Assembly (NCBI GenBank): GCA_963744145.1
Contig: CAVUSO010000001.1
Coordinates: 3,712,001 to 3,776,000 of the forward strand
Source: an uncultured cyanobacterium
GTDB taxonomy: Bacteria; Cyanobacteriota; Cyanobacteriia; Cyanobacteriales; CAWUOF01
Direction of reading: 5' to 3'
Length of the DNA: 64,000 bases
Every line of letters starts with the position of its first letter. Position 1 is the first letter of the stretch. Positions 6,556-56,249 of this stretch are shown here, in pieces. The notes under the pieces are model-generated. The model saw only the letters and a list, made by a program, of their open reading frames with translations, ran no database searches and was not told the DNA's origin. The position numbers and the translations under genes are program-made.

Positions 6556-6763
6556 TTATATCCCATATTTGTCCTCAATCACGATCAACCAGTTGTAATG
6601 ATGATCTATTAGTTCAGGACTCACCAAGCGTAAAAACTTCCCGATAACGCTGACACCAGGCATCTTTTTCAGCTTTAAGCCTAGCTAAGTCTTCTGGTGA
6701 TCTCCTAAATTCAGGAAATAACCTACATCGACGGTGAGGACGATTTGATCTTGTTTGAGTCAT
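6556..6763 (-). pseudogene. Frameshifted, truncated small hypothetical gene of a type seen in cyanobacterial TA clusters
   Basis: Hand translation MTQTRSNRPHRRCRLFPEFRRSPEDLARLKAEKDAWCQRYREVF, continuing in another frame as LVSPELIDHHYNWLIVIE. Confidence 0.5.
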
Positions 6764-6906
6764 TGCTCGAATTTTTATTCAACTAGATCCAGTTATATCT
6801 GCCATATTCCCAAGCATAAGCTGATATTTCTCGCACTAAGACCAATCTGTGAGAACATGAAAAACAGAGAAAAAACATCACCAACTGGAAACCTGATGTA
6901 AACCTT

Positions 6907-8124: not shown

Positions 8125-8307
8125 GCATTAGAGCTGGCTAGATCCCAAATCCTAACCCAAGCAAACTTTTGAGATTTTTCCGGACTTGGTGGCAACCGAA
8201 TGGGAGAAAGACTTAATAACATTATTTGCTGACCCATTGCTGACATGAAACTGTGCTACAGTGGGCGTAAATCGCTTTCAGTCTTTCTTCTCCGGCTCAG
8301 CAGACTT

Positions 8308-30394: not shown

Positions 30395-32011
30395 ATGTCA
30401 TGCTTAAACCTTACCAATCCTACTACGCCCGAGAGCATGATTCCCAACGCCCAGGGGGGAATGAATATCATAGGTATTGCAGGTGACAACCAACTCAATA
30501 TCAACACTACTAACAACCTGGTTTTACTGCAAGCAGGAAATGACTCACTTGAAGATTTTAAGGGCTTTAACACTGTAATTGCCGGATCAGGTAATGATCT
30601 GATCTCAGCATGTGGGGGCAATGATGTCCTCTATGGCAACCAGGGTGATGATACTTTATACAGCGACCCAGGCAATTCTACTCTCTATGGCGGTCAAGGT
30701 AACGACTATTTATATGCCAATGGTGGTACTAACCTGCTATCAGGCGATCAAGGAAACGATACGCTCATAGGTAGCGAATATAAAGATACGCTCATAGGTG
30801 GACAAGGTAACGACTATTTAATTGCTAGCACGGGCGAGCAGCTCCGCTATGGTAAGCTCTTATATGGTAACCAGGGTAATGATACTCTGATCGGTGGTCC
30901 AGGTAATGATACTCTCTATGGCGGTCAAGGCAACGATTATTTAATTGCTGGAGTTGGTAATAACTTCCTATCAGGCGATCAAGGGAACGATACGATCGTT
31001 GGTGGTCCAGGGAACAGTACGCTGGTGGGGGGTCAAGGTGACGATTATTTAATTGGTGGCAAAGGTAATGACCTCCTCTATGGCAATCAGGGTAATGATA
31101 CTTTACTAGCTGGCCGAGGTAATGATACCCTTTATGGCGGTCAAGGCAACGATTGTTTAATTGGTGGAATTGGTAATAACTTCCTATCAGGCGATCAAGG
31201 GAACGATACTCTCATCGGCGGTCCGGGTAACGCTACACTGATGGGGGGTCAAGGTGACGACTATTTAGTTGCTGGCAATGGCAATCAGTGCCTCTACGGT
31301 AACCAAGGTAATGATGTGCTCTATGGCGGCCCAGGAAACGATACGCTCTATGGTGGTCAAGGCAATGATTATTTAATTGCTGGTAGTGGTAATAACTTCC
31401 TATCGGGCGATCAAGGTGACGATACCCTCGTCGGTGGCAAGGGCAACACGACCCTGTTGGGAGGGCAAGGTAACGACTATTTAGTTGCTGGTAATGGCAA
31501 TCAGTACCTCGACGGCGGTCTGGGTAATGATACGCTCTATGGCGGCCCAGGGAACGATACTCTCATGGGTGGTCAAGGCAACAATTATTTAATTGCTGGT
31601 GCTGGTAATGACTTCCTATCAGGCGATCAAGGTAACAATACTCTCGTGGGTGGTCAAGGTAAGGATACTTTTAGCTTTGTCTGGTCAACTAGTGGGGCAG
31701 TGCCGATCGCTGGCACCACTAATGGGAGTCCGTTTGGATCAGACGTAATCCTCAATTTTAATTCACAGCAAGATCAAATTTTGCTAGACCATCGAATTTT
31801 CACAGCAATAACTAGCACACAAGCTGGAGTATTTGCTGAAGTTAACAATTTTAATTCTTCGGTGGTAGGTACTACCAATCCTCAACTTATTTACGATTCT
31901 AGCAGCGGGTTGCTATATTACACCCCTACTAGTGCCAAAAATGATGCCTTACCCATTATCCAACTTAGTCCAGGGCTGACTTTGAATAGTACGAACTTCG
32001 AGCTTTTCTAA
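30395..32011 (+). CDS. RTX (hemolysin-type calcium-binding) repeat protein, probable type I-secreted surface protein
   Basis: About 40 GGxGND-type nonapeptides; C-terminal DVILNFN..QDQILL and LIYD..SGLLYY; ends FELF; no Sec signal. Confidence 0.92.
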   Translation: MSCLNLTNPTTPESMIPNAQGGMNIIGIAGDNQLNINTTNNLVLLQAGNDSLEDFKGFNTVIAGSGNDLISACGGNDVLYGNQGDDTLYSDPGNSTLYGGQGNDYLYANGGTNLLSGDQGNDTLIGSEYKDTLIGGQGNDYLIASTGEQLRYGKLLYGNQGNDTLIGGPGNDTLYGGQGNDYLIAGVGNNFLSGDQGNDTIVGGPGNSTLVGGQGDDYLIGGKGNDLLYGNQGNDTLLAGRGNDTLYGGQGNDCLIGGIGNNFLSGDQGNDTLIGGPGNATLMGGQGDDYLVAGNGNQCLYGNQGNDVLYGGPGNDTLYGGQGNDYLIAGSGNNFLSGDQGDDTLVGGKGNTTLLGGQGNDYLVAGNGNQYLDGGLGNDTLYGGPGNDTLMGGQGNNYLIAGAGNDFLSGDQGNNTLVGGQGKDTFSFVWSTSGAVPIAGTTNGSPFGSDVILNFNSQQDQILLDHRIFTAITSTQAGVFAEVNNFNSSVVGTTNPQLIYDSSSGLLYYTPTSAKNDALPIIQLSPGLTLNSTNFELF

Positions 32012-32075: not shown

Positions 32076-32104
32076 AAAGTAGTGACCTGTAATGTTTGGT
32101 GAGG

Positions 32105-34600
32105 ATGAAAGAGAAAGAAAGTACAGAATTGGCGAAAAGATATTTAGCTGAAGGAAATTTGAACGCAGCACTCGCTGTGATCCAAGGAGTGATCAAACTA
32201 AACCCGAATTTGGCTGATAATTATCAAATCATTGGAGAAATTCACAAGCAACTAGGGAATTTAACAGCAGCAATATTAGCTTATTCTCAAGCTTTAGAAA
32301 TTCAGCCAGATGCGATCGAAGCTCATGTTTACCTTGGTCAATTGTACAGTCAGCAAGGATTGTTAGAGAAAGCTGTCTTTCACTACCAACAAGCTTTGAA
32401 CCAAAAACCGGAATGGTCAGAGTTGCATTACAACTTAGGTAATGTTTTCTATCGTTTGGGAGATTTACCCAGTGCATTAAACAATTACCAACAAGCGATC
32501 GGATATAACCCAAGTTATGTTGATGCTTACTACAATATGGGAGTTATTTTTGATGAATCAGGTCAGCTAGAACTAGCGATTCATAGTTATCAAACAGCGA
32601 TCGGGTTACAACCAGATTACGCTCTAGCCTATAGTAATATGGGAGCAGCTTTAGTTAAATTAGGTAATTTTGCAGAAGCCATTAAAATCTATCAAAAAGC
32701 ACTTCAGATTCAACCTAATTGGGCAACTTTACATAATAATCTTGGTCAAGTATTTATAGCACAAGAAAAAGTAGATCAAGCTACTGCTTCCTATCTTCGC
32801 GCTATTCAGTTACAACCTGATTTTGGGTTAGCTCATTATAACTTGGGTAAAGTCTTACAATACCAAGATTTACACGCTGCTGCTTTTACCTGTTTCGAGC
32901 GAGTAATTGAACTTGATTCTCATCATATTGCGGCTTATAGTGACTGTGGATTTTCTTTAATCGCGCAGTCAAAAATTACGGAGGCAATCAATTATTTTCA
33001 GAAAGCTATTGGTTTACAAAATAATTTTGTTGAGAGTTTTTGCAATTGGGTTAACCAGCAATTACCACAGGATGATTTAGATAGAGCGAGAACTGCTTGT
33101 GTTCATTTTCTCAAAGCTTTACAGGGAGAAATAGCTGGGGATCAGGTTGACGATTATTTGGCGCAAATTCACCTTTATTTAGGAAATGTATTATTAGGTT
33201 ATGGTAGGTATAAAGATGCCAAATATTATTATCAATATGTGTTGAAAATTCAACCAAATAATTCGGATGCTTATGAGAAATTTGGCAGTTGCATTTATCA
33301 ACAGCAGCAATTGAAAAATATCGAAAATGTTAAAGGTGTTTATGCTTCGGTTTTAGATTGGATTGGGGCTGTTAATTTAAGCGATCGCGATTATCTACAG
33401 GTGAATTTAGAACCAGGTTTAGAAGCAAGTGATATCAGTCGGCACACTGTGCAATCTCCCACTTCTAAACAACCCTGTGAAGGACTAAATTGTAGACCTT
33501 GTTTACAGAGAATCTTGAATTGGTTTGCACCTATTAATATGGGCAAAAGAATTTATAGGTTTAACTCTAAAAAATCTATTTATGTGCAACCACAAACTAC
33601 TTTTGTAGCGGTAATTCCAGCCGGACGTACTTGGATTGCACCCTATCAAAATTCTGCCCAGGTTTGCAATGCGATCGCCACTATTACTCCCGATCATTAT
33701 TTATTAGCAGATTTGTCTCGCGACTATCCAGGGAATCTACCGGGATGTTATGGATATAACCCGCTCCAACATAAAATTTTTACCACTTTAGAATTACCAC
33801 CTTTACAACAAATTGATGGCACAGTAGCAGTATTTTCTGGGCTATCAGGAAACGTTTATTTTCACTGGATGGTAGATATTTTACCCCGGATTGAAATTAT
33901 GCGAAAAGCGGGGTTAAATTTTGATAAAATTGATTGGTTTTTGATTAACAGTTGTCAAGAAAAATTTCAGCGAGAGACATTGAGGATTTTGGGAATTCCA
34001 GCAGAAAAAATTTTAGCAAGCGATCATTATCCTCACCTGCAAGCTAAACAATTAATTGTGCCATCATTTCCAGGATATTTAGGTTGGTTATCTAATTGGG
34101 CACTACATTTTTTGAGACGGGAATTTCTACCAGAGTCATTTTTAGAAAAATTAAACTATCCAGAGCGAATTTATATCAGTCGGGGAAAAGCTAGATATCG
34201 GAGAGTTTTGAATGAAGAAGATGTAATGCTAGTATTAAGGAAATTTGGTTTTGTTTCAATTTTATTAGAATCAATGTCTTTTGAGGAACAAGTTACTTTA
34301 TTTGCTCGGGCTAAGATCATAGTTGCACCCCATGGGAGCGGGCTAACAAATATGATATTTTGCTCTCCGGGTACACAGATAATTGAACTATTTTCTCCTC
34401 ACTATATTAGACATTATTTCTGGCTGATTAGTCAGCAACTTCAACTAGAACATTACTACTTGATGGGAGATAAATTTGAGGGAGATTATCTGAGAAACTT
34501 AATGTATCAAAGTCCGCTGACTGAAGATATTATGGTAAATATTGATGCTTTGTCAAAAATGATGCAAATATCAGTCGGAGCATCTAGCGAAAAAACATGA
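32105..34600 (+). CDS. TPR-repeat + glycosyltransferase family 61 (DUF563) protein
   Basis: About 10 TPRs, then YFHWMVDILPR, RIYISR...RRVLNE, IVAPHGSGLTN. Confidence 0.9.
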   Translation: MKEKESTELAKRYLAEGNLNAALAVIQGVIKLNPNLADNYQIIGEIHKQLGNLTAAILAYSQALEIQPDAIEAHVYLGQLYSQQGLLEKAVFHYQQALNQKPEWSELHYNLGNVFYRLGDLPSALNNYQQAIGYNPSYVDAYYNMGVIFDESGQLELAIHSYQTAIGLQPDYALAYSNMGAALVKLGNFAEAIKIYQKALQIQPNWATLHNNLGQVFIAQEKVDQATASYLRAIQLQPDFGLAHYNLGKVLQYQDLHAAAFTCFERVIELDSHHIAAYSDCGFSLIAQSKITEAINYFQKAIGLQNNFVESFCNWVNQQLPQDDLDRARTACVHFLKALQGEIAGDQVDDYLAQIHLYLGNVLLGYGRYKDAKYYYQYVLKIQPNNSDAYEKFGSCIYQQQQLKNIENVKGVYASVLDWIGAVNLSDRDYLQVNLEPGLEASDISRHTVQSPTSKQPCEGLNCRPCLQRILNWFAPINMGKRIYRFNSKKSIYVQPQTTFVAVIPAGRTWIAPYQNSAQVCNAIATITPDHYLLADLSRDYPGNLPGCYGYNPLQHKIFTTLELPPLQQIDGTVAVFSGLSGNVYFHWMVDILPRIEIMRKAGLNFDKIDWFLINSCQEKFQRETLRILGIPAEKILASDHYPHLQAKQLIVPSFPGYLGWLSNWALHFLRREFLPESFLEKLNYPERIYISRGKARYRRVLNEEDVMLVLRKFGFVSILLESMSFEEQVTLFARAKIIVAPHGSGLTNMIFCSPGTQIIELFSPHYIRHYFWLISQQLQLEHYYLMGDKFEGDYLRNLMYQSPLTEDIMVNIDALSKMMQISVGASSEKT

Positions 34601-34707
34601 TTCAGTCGATGACAATAGTTTTTCCTGTCCCGCGAAGATTACTACTTGACAGTAACTCAGTTTGAGTGCTATTTTTGAAGAAATTAATAGATAACCGCCT
34701 AGTATAC

Positions 34708-36375
34708 ATGAAAGAAAAGATCGAAACAACAGCGGCTCAATTAAACCAGCAAGCAGAAAATTGTTTAGTTCAAGGAAAATTAGCAGAGGCGATCGATTGT
34801 TGTCAACAAGCCTTAAAAATAGAACCAAATTTTGTGCTAGCTTATAAAAATTTAGGAAATGCCTTACAAGCGATCGGCAATTTAGAGTCAGCGCAGGAAT
34901 GCTATGAAAAAGCTCTCTTAATTGACCCAAATTTTGCTGAAGTCTATGCTAATATTGGCAGTATATATGCCCAGCAGCACCAGTGGCAGCAAGCAATATT
35001 ATTTTATCAAAAAGCGTTAACATTAAAACCTAGATTTGCGGGATTTTATCGGAATTTAGCCAAAGCATGGCAGCAGTTAGGTAAGGAGGAAGAAGCGGTT
35101 AGCTGTTGGTATGAAGCTCTAAGGTTAGAACCTACCAAAGTAGCAGCAGAAGAACATTTAAACTTGGGTCATACTTTGTTAAAATATGGTCAAGTTACTC
35201 AAGGGATAGAGTGCTATCAGCGGAGTGTACAAATGAAACCTGAATTAGCAAGTATAGTTAATCAAAAGATGCCAAATATACTGCAACAACAGGACAAATT
35301 AGCCCAGCCAAATAGGGGGATAAAAATAGGGATAAATCCAGGAGATTTGGAAAATTATCAAGTTCTGGCTCAAGCTTATTCTCAGCGAGGAAATTGGGAG
35401 AAGGTGATTTTATCCTGTCAGCAGTTTCTCCAATTAAAACCTGATGCTCAGATGTATAAGCTATTGGGAAATGCTTGGCAAGCTACTGGAAAGATTGAAG
35501 AATCTATAACAGCTTATCAGGAAGCGATCAGGTTGCAGCCAAATTTGGCTGAAGCTCACGCTAATTTAGGAAGTTTGTATGCTCAAATACACCAGTGGCA
35601 ACCAGCGTTAGTAAATTATCAAAATGCCATTAAAATTAACCCAAATGTTGCTGAATTTCATCGCAATTTAGCTAAGATTTGGGAGATGGTAAAGGAGCCA
35701 TTAAAGGCTGTAGAATGTTGGCATCAGGCATTAAGTTTAGAGCCAGAATTGGCAACAGTTGAAGAACATTTCACACTAGGAAATCGTTTAGTTAGTTTTG
35801 GCAAACTCGCGGAGGCTGAAAAATGTTATCAGCGAGTCGTAGAATCTGATCCAAAAAATCTGCCAGCTTGGTATAATTTGGGTGAAATATGGCAGAATAA
35901 TAAGTGGTGGTCAAAAGCAATTTTTGCCTATAAAAAGGTCTTAGAAATCGATCCAGAAAATCTAGATGCGCTGTTAATACTTGGATTAATTTTGGGAGAA
36001 TTAGAACAATGGAATGAATCAATTTCTTGCTATCGACGTATTCTTGATCTAAATCCCTCTTGGGCAAGAGCTTATCATTCTTGGGGCTATACTCTTAGTA
36101 AAAAAGGTAATTTTTATGAAGCTGTCAACTATTATCAAAAAGCGATTGAATTAAATCCCCAAAATGCCTGGTTTTATCATAATTTAGGTGATGCACTCAG
36201 ATCCCTGTGGCGTAATGATGAAGCTATATTAGCATATCAGCGTGCGATTGAGTTAAACCCAAACTATTCTTGGTCGCACAGAAATTTAGGAGATATCTTA
36301 GCAGCTCAAGGTAAAACCGCTCTAGCTACTGCTTGTTATCGTCGTGCGATTAAACTAAAACCTAGAATCTCCTAA
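34708..36375 (+). CDS. TPR-only protein
   Basis: Continuous 34-aa TPR pattern with no catalytic domain seen. Confidence 0.88.
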   Translation: MKEKIETTAAQLNQQAENCLVQGKLAEAIDCCQQALKIEPNFVLAYKNLGNALQAIGNLESAQECYEKALLIDPNFAEVYANIGSIYAQQHQWQQAILFYQKALTLKPRFAGFYRNLAKAWQQLGKEEEAVSCWYEALRLEPTKVAAEEHLNLGHTLLKYGQVTQGIECYQRSVQMKPELASIVNQKMPNILQQQDKLAQPNRGIKIGINPGDLENYQVLAQAYSQRGNWEKVILSCQQFLQLKPDAQMYKLLGNAWQATGKIEESITAYQEAIRLQPNLAEAHANLGSLYAQIHQWQPALVNYQNAIKINPNVAEFHRNLAKIWEMVKEPLKAVECWHQALSLEPELATVEEHFTLGNRLVSFGKLAEAEKCYQRVVESDPKNLPAWYNLGEIWQNNKWWSKAIFAYKKVLEIDPENLDALLILGLILGELEQWNESISCYRRILDLNPSWARAYHSWGYTLSKKGNFYEAVNYYQKAIELNPQNAWFYHNLGDALRSLWRNDEAILAYQRAIELNPNYSWSHRNLGDILAAQGKTALATACYRRAIKLKPRIS

Positions 36376-36407
36376 TTTTTGAGACCTAAACACAATGCTG
36401 CAAAAAT

Positions 36408-38627
36408 TCAGAAAATCCTTGGTTGAAGTTGCAACGCACGACGGTAATATAGACTTGCTTCTTCAATCTGACCTTGTTCTGCTAGAAGATCTCCTAAGTG
36501 TTTGTGTGACCAAGAGTAGTCGGGATTAAGTTCAATCGCAAGTCGGTAAGCAGCGATCGCCTCATCCCATTTCTGCTCTTGCTCTAAAGCTTTTCCTAAC
36601 TCCAAGTAGATTTCAAAGTTATCTGGGTGAAATTGAAGAGCAGTTTGGTAAGCAGCGATCGCCTCACCATAGCGATTTTGTTGAACTAACGCCTTACCTA
36701 GCTGCCAATGAATTTGAGCATCATCGGGCTTAAATTCTAGTGCTTGATCGTCAATTTGGATATCATCAGAATTGGATTTTATCGATATTTTAGTGGTTTT
36801 TTTAGCAGACTGATTTTGCCTGGAGCTGATCAGTTTTGTAATTCCGTTCCATCCCGCCAGTAAAAGTGGGTTAAATTCAAGGAGTCTGTTCCTTATATTT
36901 GGGAAGAAAACAACAATATGGAATACCAGTAAAGGGATAAATAATGCTTCGCGAACAGACAAAAGAACTAGCAATGCTAAGGGTAACCAGGCTTCATAGA
37001 AATCGTGGGCTGGGATATATTTTTGCACAGCAGGAGCAGGATCGAAGCTAGGTGAAGAGGTGAGGTTAATATTAACACCTCTTAAAACAACATAAATGAT
37101 AAAAAATCCATTCAACAAGGGAGCAAATTGAGAGATGACAAATACTAGGAGACTCAACATCACAATTTCGCCGGGAAAGATGACGAAAGATAGCCACGAT
37201 CGCGCTGACTCTACACCAATCTTCGTTACGAGTGTATTTACACCAGCAACTAAATCATTTTCCCAATCCCATATTTGATGTAAAACAATACCTCTAATTC
37301 CAACTAAAAACGCCCATAGGGTAGCGACTATGGCTAAAGAAACGCTTTCTGACTGAGAAAAATTTCCTAATTGGGAAAATACGGTAGCAACAAATAAGGT
37401 GGGTACTGCATGGACAGCAGCAGCATCTGCAATCACTCCCCAGAGTCCCCGTTCCTTCAATCTGATGGGAGGAGCAGAATAAACAGTCAGCAACGTATAG
37501 ATCCCAGCTAGTAAGAGTGCACAACGGATACTAAAGTCAATAAAAAGCCAGGGAACTAGCCCTGCAAATGCCAAACTTGTACAAACTAAAATCCGCTCTA
37601 AAACTGAAAGAGAAGCCATTTGATTTGGCTTGCTTGCTCTTTTGTCTATTTCAATATCAAAAATGTCATTAGTAACATGACCATAGGCAGCAACGAAAAA
37701 CATGGAGATCAAGAGAGCCAATAGTGTTACTATTGCTGTTTGGGGTGGAGTAGCTTGTAGCAGGATTGTGGCATAGGCAATAGCTAACAGTGGAGGAATC
37801 TTGTATAACCACCAGTTAGCTCCGCGAACCAGCTGGAAAAAAGAGGAAAACAATCCGACTGATTTAACTTCATCTATTGTTTTTGTTTCCAGGGGATGTT
37901 TCTGTTTTTTAGAACGAGCCACGATCGCCTTTCTTTTCCCTCCTTGATTCAAGGAGGGATATTCAAGGATCTCTACTTGCTCAAAGTGTTTTTTAAAGAG
38001 GTTGACCATATATTCTACTTGTGGTCCTAGCAAATTTAGATGCTGTTTTCCAGACTTTTCATCTTTCCAACTCCAAATTATGCCTTCAAGCTGAAGAAAT
38101 CCACTATATCCATCAATATATTTGGTGGTGTACGGAAATTTTACTTCCCCCTCATATATCATGAGAGGATCACAGAGTGGCAAAAAGCAAATACCTCTTG
38201 TAGATGTCCAATTCGCAAAATTTTCAATGACGATTTCTAACTCTGATAATGAATCTACATAACAATAAGCCCACCACATACAGGATACTAAATCCCATTT
38301 TCCTTCCCAATGTAGACGCTGATCTCTATAATCACCTTGAACAAATACAGCATTTGGATTTGCTTGCTTGGCAACATTAAGCATAGCCGGCGAAATGTCT
38401 AGTCCTGTTCGTTCTATATGGGGTAATAGGCTCAAAAAATATCCAGTCCCACAGGCAACATCTAACCACTTCGCACCTGCACCGATCTCATCTAGAAGTT
38501 TACCAATAGTTTCCTGTTCAAAATCAGAATTTTTCCTAAATTCAAATTCCGGATCGAGAAGGAATCTATGGTTATACTCTTGGGCATAATTTTCGTCATA
38601 AATTTGCAGAACATCCTTTTTGTCCAT
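36408..38627 (-). CDS. Class I SAM methyltransferase + UbiA-family prenyltransferase + TPR fusion
   Basis: WLDVACGTG / GLDISPAML; NDIFDIEIDK, YSAPPIRLKER, HQIWDWENDL with multiple TM helices; three C-terminal TPRs. Confidence 0.85.
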   Translation of the reverse strand: MDKKDVLQIYDENYAQEYNHRFLLDPEFEFRKNSDFEQETIGKLLDEIGAGAKWLDVACGTGYFLSLLPHIERTGLDISPAMLNVAKQANPNAVFVQGDYRDQRLHWEGKWDLVSCMWWAYCYVDSLSELEIVIENFANWTSTRGICFLPLCDPLMIYEGEVKFPYTTKYIDGYSGFLQLEGIIWSWKDEKSGKQHLNLLGPQVEYMVNLFKKHFEQVEILEYPSLNQGGKRKAIVARSKKQKHPLETKTIDEVKSVGLFSSFFQLVRGANWWLYKIPPLLAIAYATILLQATPPQTAIVTLLALLISMFFVAAYGHVTNDIFDIEIDKRASKPNQMASLSVLERILVCTSLAFAGLVPWLFIDFSIRCALLLAGIYTLLTVYSAPPIRLKERGLWGVIADAAAVHAVPTLFVATVFSQLGNFSQSESVSLAIVATLWAFLVGIRGIVLHQIWDWENDLVAGVNTLVTKIGVESARSWLSFVIFPGEIVMLSLLVFVISQFAPLLNGFFIIYVVLRGVNINLTSSPSFDPAPAVQKYIPAHDFYEAWLPLALLVLLSVREALFIPLLVFHIVVFFPNIRNRLLEFNPLLLAGWNGITKLISSRQNQSAKKTTKISIKSNSDDIQIDDQALEFKPDDAQIHWQLGKALVQQNRYGEAIAAYQTALQFHPDNFEIYLELGKALEQEQKWDEAIAAYRLAIELNPDYSWSHKHLGDLLAEQGQIEEASLYYRRALQLQPRIF

Positions 38628-38825
38628 AGGTTTCTCCCAAATAGCAGTATTTTATCAAAAATTTACCATTTGGCGATCGCTTATGGACTCTAAACCTTAA
38701 TCAGAAGTTGAGATTGTAAATCAGTTGCGATCGGGTATGAGCTTGTGGTATAGGTAGGGCAATATACTCCAAAACTCTCACTAAAACTAGGGGCCATCAA
38801 ATTATAGTTTCCACTTAATCATAAT

Positions 38826-40055
38826 ATGAAAGACCAAGAAGAAAAATTAATTGCTCACTATCAAAAAGCTTTAATTATTAAATATGACAATCCTCAGATC
38901 CACGACCAACTAGCAAAGATCTATCACTGGCAATTAAAATATGAGCGAGCATCCTATCATTATCTAAAATCTCTCAGATTTGCTCCCAATAACTTGAAGA
39001 ATTACTTTAATTTAAAGGTTGCTCTACTAGGATTAACTTGGGCTAAGGAGAAAATTGATTTTGATTTACTAGAGGAAGGGATTATCCTGATCCGTCAGAT
39101 CATTAAGAACAATCCAAATTTTTATGTTGCTTATGTTGTCTTAGGTATTTTATTAAATTTACAAGGTAAAAATAAAGAAGCAATTGATTCCTACCAACTA
39201 TCTAGCTATCAAAAAATCCTGCTATCCCATCCTCAAATAGTTGAAAAGCATTGGGATATCCAACACAAACTTCAACCAAGTTTTATGATTCCCGGATTTT
39301 TCAAGTGCGGGACAACCTCTCTTTATTCCTATCTAAGCACTCATCCTCAAGTTATTCCTGCGGTTGATAAAGAACTTTGGTTTTTCTGTAATTTTTTCGA
39401 GCAAGATATCGATTACTATCTCGCTCATTTTCCGGCAATCTCTAATGACCTAGGTTATATTACTGGAGAAGCAACTCCTATATATATTAATTTTCCTAGG
39501 ATCGGTAAAAATATATTTTCTCTGTTTCCCAAAATGAAGTTTATAGTTCTCTTAAGAAACCCAATTGATCGAGCTATTTCTTCCTATTATCATCAATATC
39601 CGAGAAAATATGAATGTAAGCTAACACAGAGTAGCATAACCAAAACTCTAGAAAAAGCTCCTAATTTAATTAATAAATGGTTCAATAATTCCTTACTATT
39701 TCAGCCAACATTATTCCTAAAAAATCACCCAGAATACTTTATGAACGATGTCCTATTACCTCATTTGCTATTTAGTTTATATATCTATTATCTCAAACAA
39801 TGGATAAATATTTTTCCAAGAGAGCAGATTTTAATTCTGAAAAGTGAGAATCTGTTCAATAATCCGTCAGCGACGATGAAACAAGTTTACAGTTTTCTGA
39901 ACTTATCAGATTACCATATACCTGAATATCACAATTATAATCCTAACTCCTATCCTCCAATTTCTGACAACATACGCAGTCAGTTATTAGAATTTTTCCG
40001 TCTTTATAACCAGCAACTTGAAGAATATTTGGATATGCAATTTAACTGGAGATAA
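38826..40055 (+). CDS. TPR + sulfotransferase domain protein
   Basis: PAPS-binding KCGTTSLY, KELWFF, GEATP.Y, LRNPIDRAISSY. Confidence 0.9.
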   Translation: MKDQEEKLIAHYQKALIIKYDNPQIHDQLAKIYHWQLKYERASYHYLKSLRFAPNNLKNYFNLKVALLGLTWAKEKIDFDLLEEGIILIRQIIKNNPNFYVAYVVLGILLNLQGKNKEAIDSYQLSSYQKILLSHPQIVEKHWDIQHKLQPSFMIPGFFKCGTTSLYSYLSTHPQVIPAVDKELWFFCNFFEQDIDYYLAHFPAISNDLGYITGEATPIYINFPRIGKNIFSLFPKMKFIVLLRNPIDRAISSYYHQYPRKYECKLTQSSITKTLEKAPNLINKWFNNSLLFQPTLFLKNHPEYFMNDVLLPHLLFSLYIYYLKQWINIFPREQILILKSENLFNNPSATMKQVYSFLNLSDYHIPEYHNYNPNSYPPISDNIRSQLLEFFRLYNQQLEEYLDMQFNWR

Positions 40056-40467: not shown

Positions 40468-42708
40468 ATGAATCAACTAGCATTACTCAACGAAATCTCT
40501 AAAAATAATTTTACAGCGCCCTTTATTGCCGATTTTCTGAAAAAATTACCTCAATCAAATGAGTCATTAGGAATTCTGGTTACTTCTGAATATGAAGGGA
40601 TTTCTAAAAACGGTGGAATTGGCACTTACTACGCGACCTTGAGCCAAAAATTAGCAGCAGCAGGTGCATATATTATATTAATTCTCTGTCAAACTCAAGC
40701 AAAATTTCACGGAGAATCGAATATTCCCCATATCCGTCACATATTTTCTACTAACGAAACCGAGGAAGTTTTAAAACTACAGCCACTTCATCGAGCAATT
40801 TTATCCCAGTTTAAATCGGACTGGATAGAATCAGAAAGCTATAAAATTCTCTTTTTGATCCAAGCGATCGCCGCTCATTTTACTAAGTCTATAATTTATA
40901 TAGAATTTCCCGATTTATCTGGACTGGGATATTGCACAATTCAAGCAAAACGTTCAGGTTTGTTAGGAAAAAATTGTCTCACAGCCGTAACAATACACAG
41001 TGGTCAAGAGTGGTTAAATGAAGCAAATGAGAAATATATTATTGAGAACGGACAATGGTTTAGAAATGTTTATAATTATGAACAGTATTCTTTTGAGAAT
41101 GCCGACTTAGCATTTTTCCCATCTGCTTTTATAGAAACAAAAGTCAAAAGTTATGGCTGGAAAACTTCCCATGCACTTCATTTACCCTACTGTGTTCCAA
41201 TTCTCCCTCTCCTCGACAAAAATCGATCCATCTTAACCAAACTTTCCCTAAACCTCAAGCGAGAACAGATCCCAATAGTCTTTTTTGGTCGGTTAGAAGA
41301 AAGAAAAGGACTCCTGACTTTTATTACCGCTATTGGGCAACTAGAAAAGAAAATTAGCCAGTCAATTCACCTGATATTTTTAGGTAAAATTGTGCCACTT
41401 CATAATACCAAAAATCAGCCGCAGAATAGTCAGGAATATATTCAGCAAGAATTGGGAAACAAATTTTCTTACACAATATTATCAGACTTGTTTAGCCAAG
41501 AAGCCACTACTCTAGTCCAGGAACTAGCACCAGCGATTGTTTGTCTGACCAGTTATCAAGACAACTTTCCCAATAGTGCGTTGGAAATGGGACAGTTACC
41601 CGTGAGTTTAGTAGTTGCAAATACGGGGGGATTTCGGGAAACCTTAAAGATGATTGAGCGATCGCAAGGTGTGAGATGGTTTGAACCTGGAAACTCCCAA
41701 TCTCTAGCAGAGGAAATTGCCAACGCGATTGGGAATTATCCTGAAAACCCACCTCTCCCTCAATTGGCGTTTTTAGAACAACTTAATCAATGCTTATTAA
41801 ATCAGCGGCTAGACTATATAAAACTAGCATTTTTTCAAACATCTTCCAGTCACAGTTTTTTATTAGGAATGACATCTTACCAAGAGCAAGTTTTTCTCCA
41901 TGATTATGGCCAAAATGAGTATTCTGGTCAAGGTGAAATCATCGATTTAGGTTGTTGGCTGGGTTCGGCTACAATTTCGATCGCCAAAGGATTAGAAAAA
42001 AATCTGCAAGTAACTGCCAAGAACAAACGGATTCATGCCTATGATCTATTCATTTGGGAACCATCTTATATGGATAGGTGTGTCAAAGGGACTACTCTAG
42101 AAGGCAAATACAAACAAGGAGATAGTTTTTTGGATGAGTTTTTGCACAGAAGTCATCCCTGGAGTCAATTGATTGAAGTTTACCCAGGAGATGTGTTAAA
42201 AATTGGCTGGTCAAAACGCCCAATCGAATACTTATTTATTGATGCTATGAAAACTTGGGAACTAACAAAAAGTATTTTCCTAAATTTTTATCCCCATCTA
42301 ATTCCCATGACTTCCCTAATCCACTATAATGATTTTGCCCATTTTTACACAGCCTGGATTCATCTATTGATTTACAAACTGAGACCCTACTTCAAACACC
42401 ATTGTAATCTCGACCAAGCCGCTGTATTTCAATATGTCAATCCCGTCCCATTTGACACATTACAAATCTACCATGACACTTCTTTTAAGATATTTTCCCA
42501 TGCAGATATTGAGCAAGCTTTTGAATACTCATCAGCCATCGTCACCGAGACATTTCGTCCTAATATTGCGGCTGCAAAAGTAATGGCTTTTTTTCATTGG
42601 GGAGATTTAATACAAGCTAAACAAGAACTAAGTAAAGCCATGGATAATTTTGGTAATATTGACCAAATTAATAACGTAGCAAAAATATTATCTGGGATAT
42701 TTGATTGA
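40468..42708 (+). CDS. GT4 glycosyltransferase + SAM methyltransferase-like domain
   Basis: KNGGIGTY, FFGRLEERKG, DNFPNSALE; C-terminal IIDLGCWLGS, YLFIDA. Confidence 0.85.
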   Translation: MNQLALLNEISKNNFTAPFIADFLKKLPQSNESLGILVTSEYEGISKNGGIGTYYATLSQKLAAAGAYIILILCQTQAKFHGESNIPHIRHIFSTNETEEVLKLQPLHRAILSQFKSDWIESESYKILFLIQAIAAHFTKSIIYIEFPDLSGLGYCTIQAKRSGLLGKNCLTAVTIHSGQEWLNEANEKYIIENGQWFRNVYNYEQYSFENADLAFFPSAFIETKVKSYGWKTSHALHLPYCVPILPLLDKNRSILTKLSLNLKREQIPIVFFGRLEERKGLLTFITAIGQLEKKISQSIHLIFLGKIVPLHNTKNQPQNSQEYIQQELGNKFSYTILSDLFSQEATTLVQELAPAIVCLTSYQDNFPNSALEMGQLPVSLVVANTGGFRETLKMIERSQGVRWFEPGNSQSLAEEIANAIGNYPENPPLPQLAFLEQLNQCLLNQRLDYIKLAFFQTSSSHSFLLGMTSYQEQVFLHDYGQNEYSGQGEIIDLGCWLGSATISIAKGLEKNLQVTAKNKRIHAYDLFIWEPSYMDRCVKGTTLEGKYKQGDSFLDEFLHRSHPWSQLIEVYPGDVLKIGWSKRPIEYLFIDAMKTWELTKSIFLNFYPHLIPMTSLIHYNDFAHFYTAWIHLLIYKLRPYFKHHCNLDQAAVFQYVNPVPFDTLQIYHDTSFKIFSHADIEQAFEYSSAIVTETFRPNIAAAKVMAFFHWGDLIQAKQELSKAMDNFGNIDQINNVAKILSGIFD

Positions 42709-42715
42709 TATTTTT

Positions 42716-45022
42716 ATGAAAATGCCAGCCGAAAATTTAATCTCCTATATTCTCTCTCCTGAGAATTCAGAATTGCGTTTTCTTCCCGATTTTTTAGAGG
42801 GTTTTGATCTCACTCATCAAAAAGTCGCCGTCCTTGCCAGTAACGAATTTGAGGGATTTTCTAAAAACGGTGGTATCGGCACTTATTATACCACATTGAG
42901 CCAAAAATTAGCAGCAGCAGGTTGGTATGTTATCCTCTTACTTTGTCAGAACCAGGATAACTTTCAAGGGAAAGCACAACTACCAAATCTCCATCACATT
43001 TTTTCTACTAGCGAAGTTGAAAAAGTCCTCAATCTTCAACCCATCCACCAAGCAATTTTATCAAAATGCCAAGCCGACTGGCTGATGAAATGGTTTGATT
43101 ATGAAAATTTCTGCTATTTGTTCTTTACTCAAGCCATTGTTGCTACTTTTCCTGAAGCAGTTATTTATCTTGAATTTCCGACAATTTGGGGTTATGGTTA
43201 TCGCACAATTCAAGCCAAAAAATCAGGTATTTTAGGTAATAGTTGTCTGATTGGTGTTACCGATCACGGTGGGTTTGAATGGTTGCGGGAAGTCAATAGT
43301 AAATATATAATAGATAACCCTAAATGGTTTTGGCGGGCTTATCACTACGAACAATATTCTTATGATCATGCTGATTTAGCCTACTTTCCTTCTTACTTTT
43401 TGAAATCAAAAGTAGAAAGCTATGGCTGGAAAACTTCTCATGCTATTCATCTACCTTCTTTTATCCCTTCCTTAGATTTGCCAACAGCAGAAAAAAAACC
43501 AGCAATCAGAATGTCAGTTCCGATTGATGCCAAATTAATCCCACTGGTATTTTTTGGTCGGTTACAGGAGAGAAAAGGACTCTGTACATTTGTAGAAGCC
43601 CTCGAGCAGCTTAACCCCGACATAGCTGAGAAAATTTACATTCTTTTTCTGGGTAGAATTATTCAATTAGAGTCAACTCAGTTGCAAGGTTTGGATAGTC
43701 AGCAATATATTGATAGCAGTTTGTCAGGTAAATTTTCTTACCAGATTTTGTCGGATTTATCCAGCCGAGAAGCCATCGATTTAGTCAGTCAACTCTCGGC
43801 TCCAATTGTCTGTCTTTGCAGCTTACAAGAAAACTTTCCCTATACGGCTTTAGAGATGGGACAGTTAGCCGTGAGTTTAGTAGTTTCTAATACGGGAGGA
43901 TTTCAAGAAACCTTAAATTTAATTGCCAGAACCGATGGGGTACACTGGTTTGAGCCAGAAGACAAATACTCTCTGGTTGATGCTATCAAGGAAGCGATCT
44001 TAGCTTATCCTGAAACGCCAGTCGTTCCTGAGCGCAATTGCTTAGAACAAGTGAATCAAAAATTACTTAACCAAAGGCTTGAATATATGAGTAAAGCATT
44101 TATCCAATCCGCACCAAAAGACACCCAAAATCCCTTGATCACGATTGGTGTGACTTGTTTTATCGATCCGAAAAAATTTTTACATTGCCTCGAAAGTCTA
44201 GCCGTTCAAACTTATCAAAATTTAGAAGTTATTATTCTGTCTGAAACATCCGCTAGTGAATCTATCCAAGCAGCGATCGCTCTGGCGAAGGAGCAATTTC
44301 CGATCTATCAGTTTATCGAACTCAATCTTACTAAAAGTTTAGGAGCGGCTTATAATCAGTTAGTAGCAATGGCAAAGGGAAAATATTTTTTGCAATTTAC
44401 CTCCGATCACATCGCCCTACCTGTGATGGTGGAAAAATTAGTGACAGCAGCTTGTGCATCTGATCCTGTAGCGGTGGTATGTCCAGACATGAAATTAGAC
44501 CAAGACTTGACAGTAATCAACTTGACTGATGGTTCTTTACTCCAGATCTTGGAATTTAATCAAACCCAGGATTTGTGCGCTCTATTTGCCCTGGATTGGT
44601 TGCGAGAGTTTCCCTATTGTGAGGTCAGAGATTTACTAGCTTTAAATTGGCAGATTTTAGCCGCTGCGATCGCCACTGGTCAAGAGATTGCCTACTATCC
44701 CTATCCCCTGTATCTCTCCGACCCCTATTCAGCTTTCGCGATTAACCCGACAAAATTCCCCAAAGAGCGGTATTATTTGCGTCAATACTTATCTCAAATC
44801 GAGGCTGCTCGATGGACTCAACGCCAACTTAATCTTCTCCTCACTTGTGTGGAGCAACTTTGGCAATCGGAGCAAGATAAAAAGCGCTACCAAGCTTTAG
44901 CATCTCAATCCCAAGCTTGGATACAAACAGCACTAGAAACCCAAGACGAACTTGACTTACTCCAAGTGGAACTGCAACAGACACAAGCAGTATTAAAATC
45001 TATTGAAAAGAGTCAGGTTTGA
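42716..45022 (+). CDS. GT4 + degenerate GT2 glycosyltransferase with coiled-coil tail
   Basis: Paralogous GT4 (KNGGIGTY, FFGRLQERKG, ENFPYTALE); PLITIGVT..CLESLAVQTYQNLEVII. Confidence 0.85.
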   Translation: MKMPAENLISYILSPENSELRFLPDFLEGFDLTHQKVAVLASNEFEGFSKNGGIGTYYTTLSQKLAAAGWYVILLLCQNQDNFQGKAQLPNLHHIFSTSEVEKVLNLQPIHQAILSKCQADWLMKWFDYENFCYLFFTQAIVATFPEAVIYLEFPTIWGYGYRTIQAKKSGILGNSCLIGVTDHGGFEWLREVNSKYIIDNPKWFWRAYHYEQYSYDHADLAYFPSYFLKSKVESYGWKTSHAIHLPSFIPSLDLPTAEKKPAIRMSVPIDAKLIPLVFFGRLQERKGLCTFVEALEQLNPDIAEKIYILFLGRIIQLESTQLQGLDSQQYIDSSLSGKFSYQILSDLSSREAIDLVSQLSAPIVCLCSLQENFPYTALEMGQLAVSLVVSNTGGFQETLNLIARTDGVHWFEPEDKYSLVDAIKEAILAYPETPVVPERNCLEQVNQKLLNQRLEYMSKAFIQSAPKDTQNPLITIGVTCFIDPKKFLHCLESLAVQTYQNLEVIILSETSASESIQAAIALAKEQFPIYQFIELNLTKSLGAAYNQLVAMAKGKYFLQFTSDHIALPVMVEKLVTAACASDPVAVVCPDMKLDQDLTVINLTDGSLLQILEFNQTQDLCALFALDWLREFPYCEVRDLLALNWQILAAAIATGQEIAYYPYPLYLSDPYSAFAINPTKFPKERYYLRQYLSQIEAARWTQRQLNLLLTCVEQLWQSEQDKKRYQALASQSQAWIQTALETQDELDLLQVELQQTQAVLKSIEKSQV

Positions 45023-45072: not shown

Positions 45073-45678
45073 ATGACCTACACCCCATCCAAACTACTTA
45101 GTTTCAGCGAGTTTATCGCCCAATACGGGGATAATACAAAGTATGAACTCATGGACGGAGAACTCAGAGAGATGGAACCTACTGGTCCTCATGAAGCGGT
45201 GGCAGGGAGTATTGCTGGTAGAATTTATGTGGAAATTTTTCGTACTAATTGCAATTGGTTGGTGCCAAAAACTTGTTTGATCAAGCCCATATACGCTGAA
45301 GCTACAGCACTACGTCCTGACGTAATTGTTTTAGATCAAACCGAACTTGGTAATGAAACTCTTTGGCAAAAAGAACCAGTGATTTGTAAAGGTAATACCA
45401 TTAAGCTTGTGGCTGAAGTGGTCAGCACTAATTGGCAAGATGATTATGCCAGAAAAGTGGAAGAATACGCTTTTTTGAATATCCCAGAATATTGGATTGT
45501 GGACTTTCGGGGCTTGGGTGGTTGGCAATTTATCGGCAATCCCAAGCAACCTACTTTCACCATCTGTCAGTTAGTTAATGGGGTGTACCAACAGCAACAA
45601 TATCGCTTGGGAGAACCGATTTCTTCTTTCCTGTTTCCAAATTTACAATTGCGACTCGACGATATTATGCCAACCTGA
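45073..45678 (+). CDS. Uma2 family endonuclease
   Basis: YELMDG, RPDVIV, LVAEVVS, IPEYWIVD. Confidence 0.9.
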   Translation: MTYTPSKLLSFSEFIAQYGDNTKYELMDGELREMEPTGPHEAVAGSIAGRIYVEIFRTNCNWLVPKTCLIKPIYAEATALRPDVIVLDQTELGNETLWQKEPVICKGNTIKLVAEVVSTNWQDDYARKVEEYAFLNIPEYWIVDFRGLGGWQFIGNPKQPTFTICQLVNGVYQQQQYRLGEPISSFLFPNLQLRLDDIMPT

Positions 45679-55503: not shown

Positions 55504-56249
55504 TTAAACAGATAAAGACATATTATAGTGATGAATGAAATACCAGATCGGTGCGATCTGGTTTTCCAGTTTTTTTGAAAAAGAAAGACTTTCTCTAACT
55601 AATCGAGAAATTCTTTGACGCATCGTGTTATTAAAACGTTCAATATGATTAGTTTTTCCCGTTTCTTTACCAACAGGTTTATGACGTTTTTGGGGACAAA
55701 TTTTCCCATAAGCTGCCCAAAAATCAGGATAACAAACAGCACATTGACGATAAACTGGTGGCAAAGATTGCCACAATTTTTTTGCGCCTTCTTCACTCCG
55801 ATCACCAATATGAACACCAACAATTTCGCGAGGGTCTTTATCTAATGCCAACCAAATCCACTGTTTATTATTTTTATTTTGAACAAATGACCAAGCTTCA
55901 TCACATTCAATCGTTAATTTCCCCCTTTTTTTTCCGGAAGTACGGGCGTATTGCAATACGCATCTACACCTGTTGAGGAATTTTTGCATATTTGTCATTA
56001 ACGTATTTTTGTAACCAAGTTTCTGACACCCCAACAGCACGAGCAATTCCAGAAGAGCGGAATTTTTTCTAGCAAAAGTCGATCAATTAATTCTTTAATT
56101 TCAGTAGAAATTACCTTCTTAGTGGGATTTTCAATAAACTGTCTTTTACAGTTTTGGCACTGGTATTTCTGCTTTTTATTATGAATTCTACCATTTTTGA
56201 CCACATGGCTAGAACCACAATTAGGACAACTAGGTTTTTCGTTTGACAT
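55504..56249 (-). pseudogene. IS1 transposase InsA/InsB, disrupted
   Basis: CPNCGS..KNG..YQCQNC; extra base near 56052 breaks the InsA HTH; palindrome at 55940-55967 brings a TAG; ECDEAWSFV, TNHIERFNNT.RQR. Confidence 0.85.

Follow-up and report, generated by a model that had tools for sequence, protein, structure and literature searches.

Two starts of bacterial surface glycans are established, namely initiation by a phosphoglycosyltransferase of the WecA/WbaP type and the lyso-phosphatidylglycerol/Kdo linker of group 2 capsules. Proteins of the UbiA superfamily are known from the synthesis of quinones, chlorophyll, heme, archaeal lipids and the phosphoribose-lipid donors of arabinan and pentofuranose side chains, and a prenyltransferase with a methyltransferase is the classical pair of prenylquinone pathways. 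The solved members of the TylM1/DesVI methyltransferases act on amino sugars. A different membrane-bound methyltransferase, WbdD, is anchored by an amphipathic helix, and its coiled coil serves as a ruler. WbdD is described as a membrane-associated methyltransferase-kinase setting O9a chain length (PMC3482155) and the synthesis of polyprenyl-phosphate pentose donors as the only established glycan role of the UbiA superfamily (PMC11127046). Here, we describe a gene that joins a TylM1-like methyltransferase to a UbiA-fold membrane domain. It occupies positions 36408..38627 on the minus strand of a 64,000-nt window, the whole stretch of cyanobacterial DNA that was analyzed, and encodes a protein of 739 amino acids plus stop (P0001).

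The translated ORF contains no internal stop, and its ATG start is backed by orthologs that align from residue 1 (alignment A1). A methyltransferase (MT) domain (residues 1–245) is followed by a UbiA fold (259–584) and three TPRs (623–739). The preliminary description of this DNA had reported such a triple fusion, and the single intact ORF, in which Pfam finds all three domains, bears this out. The architecture, which the preliminary description did not recognize, is recurrent in public data: MT and UbiA stand in one chain in 32 protein clusters (P0002–P0033) from other cyanobacteria and independent assemblies, their TPRs being taken from precomputed Pfam lists. Among these orthologs are P0006 of Calothrix sp. 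PCC 7507 and P0016 of Tolypothrix sp. PCC 7910. Public records label these proteins merely “tetratricopeptide repeat protein” or “UbiA family prenyltransferase”, and a search of the ESM Atlas matched only generic clusters of the latter name. A full-text literature search, with subscription journals and supplements outside its scope, found no paper on the MT-UbiA-TPR architecture, on its UbiA clade or on a studied member of that clade, none joining UbiA with sulfotransferase and polysaccharide terms, and none combining hormogonium polysaccharide with prenyltransferase.

For the junction near 37880, which was to be verified in reads, a 629-nt short-read contig from the public run X1 covers positions 37637–38265 with 0 differences; this run may stem from the same sample as the genome assembly, and the contig is not an independent proof. 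The genome harbors no second gene of the same UbiA clade that could be a candidate for mis-joining. Based on the junction-spanning contig, the lack of such a second gene and the 32 independent clusters, an assembly artefact was ruled out. A scan of positions 36200–39000 for promoters and terminators gave counts not above those in shuffled sequences.

The N-terminal domain (37893..38627, minus strand) is a class I SAM methyltransferase domain similar to TylM1, DesVI and CalS10. The Pfam families Methyltransf_25, Methyltransf_11 and Methyltransf_31 match within residues 50–153 with 38.8, 35.1 and 33.3 bits (cut-offs 27, 21.2 and 27). In a profile search against the PDB, DesVI was found with an E-value of 1.3e-18 and TylM1 with ∼1e-17, and the whole TylM1/DesVI/CalS10 group spans 1e-18 to 1e-15. 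The AF2 model of the domain folded alone has a pLDDT of 91.4, and Foldseek places CalS10 and TylM1 on top of its matches (E ∼2e-13, TM ∼0.6). The domain shows the class I fold, the SAM motif and family-level similarity to the TylM1/DesVI sugar N,N-dimethyltransferases, and its sequence indicates that it is a member of this family. An aromatic helix at the N-terminus and the SAM-binding core are common to it and these nucleotide-amino-sugar N-methyltransferases, whereas the alignment stops near residue 150 and the C-terminal, substrate half diverges. The active-site residues S120 and H123 of TylM1 correspond to Ala120 and Tyr123, and neither this pair nor the dTDP-sugar-binding half of TylM1 was found in the domain. 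Because of the two replacements, substrates other than amino sugars are conceivable for the domain. Another difference is its connection to a membrane enzyme. In the full-length AF2 model the MT domain reaches a pLDDT of only ∼50, and the placement of MT and UbiA domain relative to each other can therefore not be read from that model.

The membrane domain (36876..37853, minus strand) comprises ten predicted transmembrane (TM) helices modeled by AF2 with a pLDDT above 90, that is, the nine-TM UbiA fold plus one extra helix. Pfam UbiA (PF01040) matches residues 282–515 with 63.6 bits (cut-off 34.2), and VIA-align superimposes the domain on ApUbiA (Z 20.6, 261 residues), AfUbiA (Z 20.5) and DGGGPS (Z 18.5). 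The first Asp-rich motif reads N320-D321-I-F-D324-I-E-I-D328 (37644..37670, minus strand), the second D454-W-E-N-D458 (37254..37268, minus strand). Across an alignment of 102 sequences, D324 and D328 are invariant, and N320 and D321 as well as D454, D458, K333, R389, K391 and R445 are conserved in at least 90%. The Mg2+/diphosphate-binding Asp motifs of the UbiA-fold domain are intact, and together with the conserved basic residues and the matching fold they speak for a catalytically competent domain. The first motif is followed by G-K-x-N instead of the usual R-P.

The preliminary description saw no relation of the protein to the synthesis of quinones or chlorophyll, and the genome agrees: CtaB, 4-HB prenyltransferase, ChlG and MenA are encoded elsewhere and all score above their own NCBIfam cut-offs, whereas the UbiA domain reaches none of the curated subfamily cut-offs. 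It scores 44.9 and 24.4 with the ChlG models NF005742 and TIGR02056 (cut-offs 313 and 436; the genome's own ChlG scores 591), 36.7 and 30.6 with the DGGGPS models NF009522 and NF009521 (353 and 296), and 29.7, 21.7, 18.9 and 14.6 with those for HPT, EboC, MenA and CtaB (226, 250, 346 and 210). A housekeeping UbiA subfamily was ruled out on these grounds. By clade profile, the nearest characterized relatives are ChlG (1.5e-8) and DGGGPS (3e-8), followed by AfUbiA (2.5e-6), while DPPRS reaches only 8e-3. In ChlG and DGGGPS, it is an oxygen nucleophile that attacks, not an aromatic carbon.

The loops of the UbiA domain contain 17 Lys and Arg residues on the inner side and 0 on the outer side. In proteins from Aliidongia (L015, L025), an MT of the same family is attached to the C-terminal end of UbiA, and therefore both ends of this domain should face the SAM-containing cytoplasm. 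With ten TM helices and soluble domains that need cytoplasmic cosubstrates, MT, UbiA active side and TPRs are all predicted to be cytoplasmic.

A basic linker, modeled as one long helix (residues 585–622; 36762..36875, minus strand), leads to the C-terminal TPR domain (residues 623–739; 36411..36761, minus strand). Pfam recognizes three TPR stretches within residues 637–736 (TPR_11 92.5 bits, TPR_1 71.2 bits, above the cut-offs), and VIA-align matches the tail to the TPRs of OGT (Z 19.8, 32% identity). TPRs are protein-binding modules, here most like those of OGT, and both an RTX repeat protein (Pfam), encoded two genes away, and a TPR-GT61 protein lie nearby. The tail could bind a protein, such as the RTX protein, for prenylation and methylation in the manner of eukaryotic CaaX processing. 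We regard such a lipidation of proteins or peptides as extremely improbable: TPRs are found only in cyanobacterial forms whereas the MT+UbiA core of other phyla is free of them, the RTX gene is no conserved neighbor and belongs to no multi-locus cluster, and we know of no UbiA-family protein prenyltransferase.

Sliding-window identity and a quick IQ-TREE tree place a crossover zone in TM1 (residues ∼270–290; 37758..37820, minus strand), which is also bridged by the X1 contig. Upstream of it the protein resembles the MT-type orthologs, downstream the PhyH-type UbiA-TPR proteins; its closest relatives carry PhyH in place of the MT. These comparisons indicate that the gene is a mosaic, in which an MT-type N-terminus was joined within TM1 to the UbiA-TPR body of the PhyH-type subclade. 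The preliminary description had not picked up this two-subclade nature.

The UbiA clade comprises 338 representative clusters at E ≤1e-30 and shows an unusual tendency to form fusions. Extensions of at least 120 amino acids occur in 79 of the 150 best representatives, and the domains within them include GT4, GT2, CBM, PhyH and MT. UbiA is fused to GT4 in 13, to GT2 in 2 and to CBM_4_9 in 6 of the 34 long representatives scanned, and fusions to PhyH, FAD-monooxygenase and thioesterase domains also occur. We compared 79 related loci from Cyanobacteriota, Bradyrhizobium, Bryobacteraceae, Thiobacillaceae, Bacteroidota and others. In 11 of them, MT and UbiA share one chain (9 MT-UbiA, 2 UbiA-MT); in 14, they are separated by less than 300 bp, and in 7, they lie within 7 kb of each other. 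The pair therefore represents a functional unit conserved across phyla.

The neighboring genes were annotated by Pfam. A divergently oriented gene encodes a TPR-sulfotransferase (38826..40055, plus strand) with homologous neighbors in 11 related loci (cluster 3). It is followed by genes for a large GT4 glycosyltransferase of 746 amino acids (40468..42708, plus strand; cluster 5, in 9 related loci) and a two-domain GT4+GT2 glycosyltransferase of 773 amino acids (42701..45022, plus strand; also cluster 5). On the other side, a TPR-only protein of 569 amino acids (34666..36375, plus strand) is encoded convergently, next to a TPR+GT61 glycosyltransferase of 834 amino acids (32096..34600, plus strand). 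The glycan setting put forward in the preliminary description is not confined to this window, as it recurs as conserved synteny and in the gene fusions. In four syntenic loci (L001, L003, L006 and L008), the genes for MT-UbiA-TPR, TPR-sulfotransferase, Wzt with its carbohydrate-binding C-terminal domain (Wzt_C), Wzm, GT2-GT4 and GT4-GT2 follow in this order, with an APS kinase before the last one in L001 and L008. Wzm/Wzt and APS kinase are absent from the window's own locus. The nearest Wzm/Wzt genes, including Wzt_C, lie ∼46 kb away in a second locus of the same genome, and this ATPase is only 43% identical to the Wzt of the orthologous loci. Minimal modules of GT2/GT4, UbiA and MT are present in L022 and L015, while L033 contains UbiA and MT without a glycosyltransferase. 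No initiating transferase of the WecA/WbaP type was found in the annotated loci, which is weak evidence because such genes often lie outside glycan loci. Overall, gene order and fusions link the UbiA+MT pair to GT4/GT2 enzymes, sulfotransferases and, in cyanobacterial orthologs, Wzm/Wzt export.

A UbiA fold in a glycan locus could also act as a PPPRS/DPPRS-like synthase, which would combine PRPP or another sugar 1-diphosphate with polyprenyl phosphate to a lipid-linked donor for extracytoplasmic glycosylation. This would be the sole glycan role established for the superfamily (PMC11127046), and M. tuberculosis DPPRS (8j8j) is a weak match of the clade profile (E 8e-3), though only at positions 9–127, the N-terminal third; the single sequence gave no match at E ≤1. 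We consider this role very unlikely, as the UbiA domain is closer to ChlG and DGGGPS, the list of 15 NCBIfam families at E ≤10 includes no phosphoribosyltransferase, and the fused and adjoining glycosyltransferases are of the cytoplasmic GT4/GT2 types. Moreover, a GT-C enzyme or small flippase is absent from the window and from L001, L003, L006, L008 and L010, with a GT87 only in L011.

The export genes of the orthologous loci, Wzt with Wzt_C plus Wzm, allow a comparison with WbdD. A WbdD-like terminator or length regulator would use its MT to cap the non-reducing end of a glycan exported by an ABC transporter for recognition by the Wzt C-terminal domain, its UbiA part mainly as an anchor, and coil and TPRs as a ruler or to recruit the polymerase. 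A Q-rich, coiled-coil-like insert of 100–200 amino acids between UbiA and TPRs of the orthologs, at the position of the linker, and the large multi-domain GT4/GT2 enzymes alongside would suit such a regulator. Nevertheless, we think it improbable. The UbiA domain shows almost no variation in its Asp motifs and basic residues, which is unexpected for a mere anchor, and the MT lies 13 residues from TM1, directly at the membrane and not at the far end of a coil. P0001 itself has no coil, PhyH replaces the MT in the closest relatives, and the MT+UbiA pair is kept in L022, L015 and L033 without ABC transporter, coil or TPRs. Finally, no WbdD chain is among the 47 PDB matches of the MT profile at E ≤0.001.

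The reading we favor, to which we give a little less than an even chance, has the enzyme facing the cytoplasm, where it would form or alter a lipid-linked intermediate on the way to a sulfated glycan or glycolipid. Within an accessory locus for this product, the protein would be the only biosynthetic enzyme integral to the membrane. Its UbiA domain would ionize an isoprenoid diphosphate and join the isoprenoid to an oxygen nucleophile, as in ChlG and DGGGPS, yielding a new or altered lipid-linked acceptor on which the neighboring soluble GT4/GT2 enzymes could build. The fused MT may methylate the same lipid-linked head group or its first residue, and the PhyH dioxygenase at its position in the closest relatives would hydroxylate instead. 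More speculatively, the TPR tail might hold the TPR-bearing soluble partners, sulfotransferase and GT61, at the membrane.

Against this reading stand the missing Wzm/Wzt and APS kinase at the window's own locus and loci with only UbiA and MT (L033). Other loci, with P450, PhyH or an NRPS-like adenylation-carrier-thioesterase set, fit small-molecule tailoring equally well. In such a pathway, meroterpenoid-like or amino-acid-derived, UbiA would prenylate a scaffold, MT, PhyH and P450 would decorate it, and glycosyltransferases plus sulfotransferase would turn it into a sulfated glycoside. A P450 is a recurrent neighbor in 12 loci, an NRPS-type adenylation domain and a carrier-FAAL-thioesterase protein are encoded directly upstream in L003, and the PhyH, FAD-monooxygenase and thioesterase fusions as well as the prenyltransferase-methyltransferase pairing known from prenylquinones are in line with this. 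However, Wzm/Wzt with Wzt_C, APS kinase and multi-domain glycosyltransferases of 750 amino acids are polymer machinery, carbohydrate is also suggested by the CBM_4_9 giants and the GT4 fusions, prenylation by the nearest UbiA relatives takes place on oxygen instead of aromatic carbon, and the annotated loci showed no gene for the synthesis of an aromatic acceptor. Small-molecule tailoring therefore seems unlikely to us.

A bolder extension of the favored reading can be formulated, which we offer as speculation with a fairly low probability. The UbiA clade may represent a third, undescribed start or anchor of bacterial surface glycans, in which the UbiA-type enzyme links an isoprenoid by an ether or ester bond to a small head group that is tailored and extended by the fused MT, PhyH or GT domains. 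The resulting glycolipid or polysaccharide would be methylated, sulfated and anchored by an isoprenoid, and in cyanobacteria Wzm/Wzt would export it. A lipid anchor or primer of this new kind would revise the view of cyanobacterial sulfated glycans and of some proteobacterial and acidobacterial envelope glycolipids; otherwise, the gene would still exemplify a clean MT-for-PhyH domain swap by recombination inside a conserved TM helix. A large UbiA clade is consistently linked to cytoplasmic glycosyltransferases, sulfotransferases and ABC-type glycan export, and its fusions act as Rosetta stones that name the partners (TylM1-like MT, PhyH, GT4, GT2) and make the pathway directly testable.

The synechan route is of the Wzx/Wzy type, unlike the Wzm/Wzt of the orthologous loci described here. 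Synechan (xss) of Synechocystis is likewise a cyanobacterial sulfated glycan with dedicated sulfotransferases (PMC8205485). The three-component PPPRS/DPPRS systems described by Kelly et al. 2024 (PMC11127046), with Rv3806c (PDB 8j8j) as an example, also have a UbiA-fold enzyme with a cytoplasmic active site, encoded within loci for surface glycans and in some cases joined to a soluble domain, but here the partners are GT4/GT2, sulfotransferase and MT instead of GT-C and flippase. WbdD of E. coli O9a is similar in being a membrane-associated MT for an ABC-transporter-type glycan, with the coiled-coil-like spacer and the Wzt_C loci matched by the orthologs of our ORF. In contrast to WbdD, P0001 has neither kinase domain (Pfam) nor coil, its MT belongs to another, TylM1-like family, and its anchor is, by sequence, a conserved UbiA fold of catalytic type. 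With the O-prenylating branch of chlorophyll synthase ChlG and archaeal DGGGPS and AfUbiA, the UbiA domain shares the motifs NDxxDxxxD, YSxPPxRLK and DxxxD and the fold (Z 18–21), but it is set apart by its tenth TM helix, its fusions to soluble enzymes, scores far below the cut-offs and its setting in a glycan locus.

The gene lies on the minus strand at window positions 36408..38627 and forms a single ORF of 739 aa that begins with ATG and contains zero internal stops on translation. Pfam assigns class I methyltransferase (MT) models to residues 50-153, UbiA (PF01040; 63.6 bits versus a cut-off of 34.2) to residues 282-515 and three TPRs to residues 637-736. The UbiA domain carries both Asp-rich motifs, N320-D321-x-x-D324-x-x-x-D328 and D454-x-x-x-D458. 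ORF call, translation and Pfam therefore bear out the continuous triple fusion of the preliminary description. The architecture itself, which had not been recognised there, proved to be recurrent: a search of 5.8 billion proteins gave 236 matches, and among the best 120 listed at least 32 clusters (P0002-P0033) share the identical three-part architecture at 43-56% identity and 81-100% query coverage. Custom HMMs detected full MT and UbiA domains in 32 of these 32 clusters. The proteins originate from Nostoc, Calothrix PCC 7507, Tolypothrix PCC 7910, Microcoleus, Stenomitos, Leptolyngbyaceae and Nodosilinea, and are annotated merely as "tetratricopeptide repeat protein".

The genome (7.70 Mb, four contigs) encodes five UbiA-family proteins, of which the fusion protein is the sole member of its UbiA clade, so a paralog with which it could have been mis-joined is absent. 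Across the junction near 37880, where a comparison with reads had been proposed, a 629-nt contig from the public sequencing run X1 spans 37637-38265 with 0 differences from the window; this is supporting rather than independent evidence, because X1 may be the source sample of the genome. Based on the 32 clusters with the same fusion, the lack of a mis-joinable paralog and the X1 contig without differences, we rejected an assembly artefact.

The other four UbiA-family genes pass their NCBIfam cut-offs as heme O synthase (433 bits versus 246), 4-hydroxybenzoate polyprenyltransferase (307 versus 275), ChlG (591 versus 436) and cyanobacterial MenA (417 versus 225). The UbiA domain of the fusion protein reaches zero NCBIfam cut-offs: its top scores, PRK12884 (48.8 versus 269) and ChlG (44.9 versus 313), fall far short of the thresholds, as do the next ones, DGGGPS, HPT and EboC. 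A housekeeping UbiA identity was therefore rejected, in agreement with the earlier statement that the protein is unrelated to quinone or chlorophyll synthesis.

In a quick maximum-likelihood tree of 89 UbiA domains, the fusion protein groups with clusters P0039 and P0037 (SH-aLRT 100), within a subclade of 20 rows of which 19 lack an MT. The remaining MT-bearing proteins fall into a separate 59-row subclade (MT in 50 of 59; SH-aLRT 99). Sliding 30-residue identity windows against the MT-type orthologs P0002, P0016, P0004 and P0022 independently gave the same mosaic pattern. Over residues 1-285, most windows share 16-26 of 30 positions with these orthologs (10-16 in windows 151-195), a part for which no comparison with P0039 and P0037 is possible as both lack the MT domain. 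Residues 286-600 show 4-21 of 30 identical positions versus the MT-type orthologs and 18-28 versus P0039/P0037. On sequence grounds, the gene is a mosaic of the two subclades, with the crossover in the conserved TM1 segment (window ∼37758-37820). Its nearest relatives have the order PhyH (9-198), UbiA, a region of ∼300 aa with weak SQHop_cyclase_C-like repeats below cut-off, and TPR; the fusion protein therefore has an MT in place of their PhyH dioxygenase, and it lacks the middle region. Both subclades occupy the same locus type, containing a TPR-sulfotransferase and a large GT4 (L037, L039, L045 and L061). The gene is sporadic: among 40 relatives searched (one from its own family and 39 from its order), a single one had a clade member, which has no MT.

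Searched exhaustively with HMMER, the UbiA domain matched 1956 representative clusters at E<=1e-3, of which 338 reached E<=1e-30. The best 150 representatives comprise 71 stand-alone proteins, 58 with a C-terminal and 10 with an N-terminal extension of at least 120 aa, and 11 extended at both ends. Thirty-four long representatives, picked by length, were scanned with Pfam. Partners were GT4 (13), a giant CBM_4_9-containing tail in proteins of 1019-2994 aa (six), PhyH (five, one also with MT), GT2 (two), and TPR alone, an MT of a different kind and an FAD monooxygenase (one each); five had no domain besides UbiA. In the giants (P0152, P0153, P0169, P0181, P0184 and P0245), UbiA is N-terminal and the carbohydrate-binding modules lie further on, an arrangement that would require either one more TM or a tail outside the cytoplasm. 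No paper on the MT-UbiA-TPR architecture or its UbiA clade was found in full-text literature searches, and we classify the protein within a UbiA-superfamily branch that is uncharacterised, prone to fusion and associated with glycans.

A scan of prokaryotes with one genome per species gave 79 loci. As a peptide pattern of one or the other domain served to retrieve them, the following counts describe association and not unbiased frequency. MT-UbiA is fused in nine (cyanobacteria) and UbiA-MT in two; the genes are <300 bp apart in 14 (including Bradyrhizobium, Bryobacteraceae, Thiobacillaceae, Bacteroidota, Flavobacterium and Calothrix brevissima) and within 7 kb in seven. MT occurs without UbiA in 20 loci and UbiA without MT in 10, while 17 have neither by ORF/BLAST criteria, mostly distant MT matches from Thermoplasmata. 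In at least two MT-only loci (L028, L030), UbiA was probably missed by ORF calling, because tblastn matches extend into the UbiA part. These data establish the TylM1-family MT and the UbiA-fold domain as a conserved pair.

Clustering of every ORF in the loci, combined with Pfam scans, revealed recurrent neighbors: a TPR-sulfotransferase (11 loci and the window), a second type of sulfotransferase (five non-cyanobacterial loci), a large GT4 or GT4-GT2 (nine loci and the window), the Wzt ATPase (11 loci; Wzt_C in all four cyanobacterial copies scanned), Wzm (six), a P450 (12) and an AMP-binding enzyme (eight). L001, L003, L006 and L008 share the order MT-UbiA-TPR, TPR-sulfotransferase, Wzt, Wzm, GT2-GT4, GT4-GT2, with an APS kinase between the last two in L001 and L008. 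Directly upstream of MT-UbiA-TPR, L003 (Leptolyngbyaceae) additionally encodes a stand-alone NRPS-type adenylation enzyme (4288-5892) and a carrier-FAAL-thioesterase protein (5911-7809), a hint that the product may carry aminoacyl or acyl groups. Non-cyanobacterial modules are small: GT2, GT4, UbiA, MT (L022); GT4, UbiA-MT (L015); MT, UbiA-nucleotide-sugar transferase, sulfotransferase (L013); or UbiA and MT alone (L033). Among the scanned loci, we found no GT-C enzyme apart from one GT87 (L011) and no WecA/WbaP-type initiating transferase. The MT-UbiA pair is thus consistently tied to cytoplasmic glycosyltransferases and sulfotransferases, and to Wzm/Wzt export in cyanobacteria. Next to such exporters a WbdD-like terminator could be considered, a role that we regard as unlikely.

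In the window, a TPR protein (34666-36375), the TPR-sulfotransferase (38826-40055), GT4 (40468-42708), GT4-GT2 (42701-45022) and a Uma2 gene (45073-45678) lie on the strand opposite the fusion gene. No Wzm/Wzt is encoded within the 64 kb, and a second glycan locus ∼46 kb downstream of the gene, outside the window (L085, G000:C1:3795001-3814000), may supply the missing export step. It contains Wzm, Wzt with Wzt_C, MT, sulfotransferase, coiled-coil GT2, double GT2, sulfotransferase, GT4, a second MT, TPR-GT41 and Uma2. A Uma2-family gene (putative restriction endonuclease-like) ends both loci (L085:14481-15074 in the second). Between them lies an IS1-type DDE transposase fragment of 180 aa (55504-56046, minus strand), which would fit a rearrangement there. 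On the plus strand, an RTX protein with 15 calcium-binding repeat stretches by Pfam (30395-32011) sits directly upstream of a TPR-GT61 (32096-34600); by analogy they could be substrate and enzyme, since TPR plus GT61 recalls protein O-glycosyltransferases. Also on this strand, a XisH ORF (4521-4940) adjoins an ORF of XisI size (4928-5260), and such a pair also adjoins the ortholog in L001. Neighboring plus-strand ORFs in different frames (8245-8898 and 8903-9604) encode the PDZ and Peptidase_S41 parts of a C-terminal processing protease which suggests that a ctpA-like gene is split or carries a frameshift, or that the sequence contains an error.

The AF2 model has ten predicted membrane helices at residues 269-584, and with this number the inner loops of the UbiA domain carry 17 Lys+Arg and the outer loops 0. 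In two Aliidongia proteins (L015, L025), the UbiA domain is followed C-terminally by an MT from the same family as that of the fusion protein. As SAM is cytoplasmic, both termini of the clade's membrane domain face the cytoplasm, and therefore MT, UbiA active site and TPRs share one side of the membrane. The UbiA-fold domain is catalytically intact and faces the cytoplasm. We favor, with confidence slightly short of even, a joint reading in which it would transfer an isoprenoid in an O-directed reaction and thereby create or modify the lipid-linked acceptor of a glycan or glycolipid, the MT (PhyH in relatives) would tailor this intermediate, and the TPRs would dock soluble partners bearing TPRs. 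A protein lipidation enzyme, placing the prenyl group on a polypeptide instead, appears very improbable.

The MT itself is a clear relative of the TylM1 family. A profile of 34 sequences best matched DesVI (1.3e-18), TylM1 (∼1e-17) and CalS10 (1e-14), all nucleotide-amino-sugar N-methyltransferases. Modelled alone (pLDDT 91.4), the domain retrieved CalS10 and TylM1 first in Foldseek (E ∼2e-13, TM ∼0.6). The match spans the N-terminal aromatic helix and the SAM core; because it ends at about residue 150 and TylM1 S120 and H123 are replaced by Ala and Tyr, the TylM1 substrate is not transferable. That the protein prenylates and tailors a small molecule is a doubtful option, which we rank level with the terminator.

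For the UbiA domain, the single sequence matched only ChlG (2e-7) and DGGGPS (6e-6) among solved structures, and a 66-sequence clade profile matched ChlG (1.5e-8), DGGGPS (3e-8) and AfUbiA (2.5e-6). The same profile gave a marginal match to M. tuberculosis DPPRS (8e-3). A PPPRS-like synthase of a lipid-pentose donor, the only role in glycan synthesis established for the superfamily (PMC11127046), seems less probable still than the small-molecule enzyme. The AF2 model of the UbiA part (pLDDT >90) resembles ApUbiA (Z 20.6 over 261 residues), AfUbiA (Z 20.5) and DGGGPS (Z 18.5), and its alignment with the nine-TM reference structures stops at about residue 557-565.
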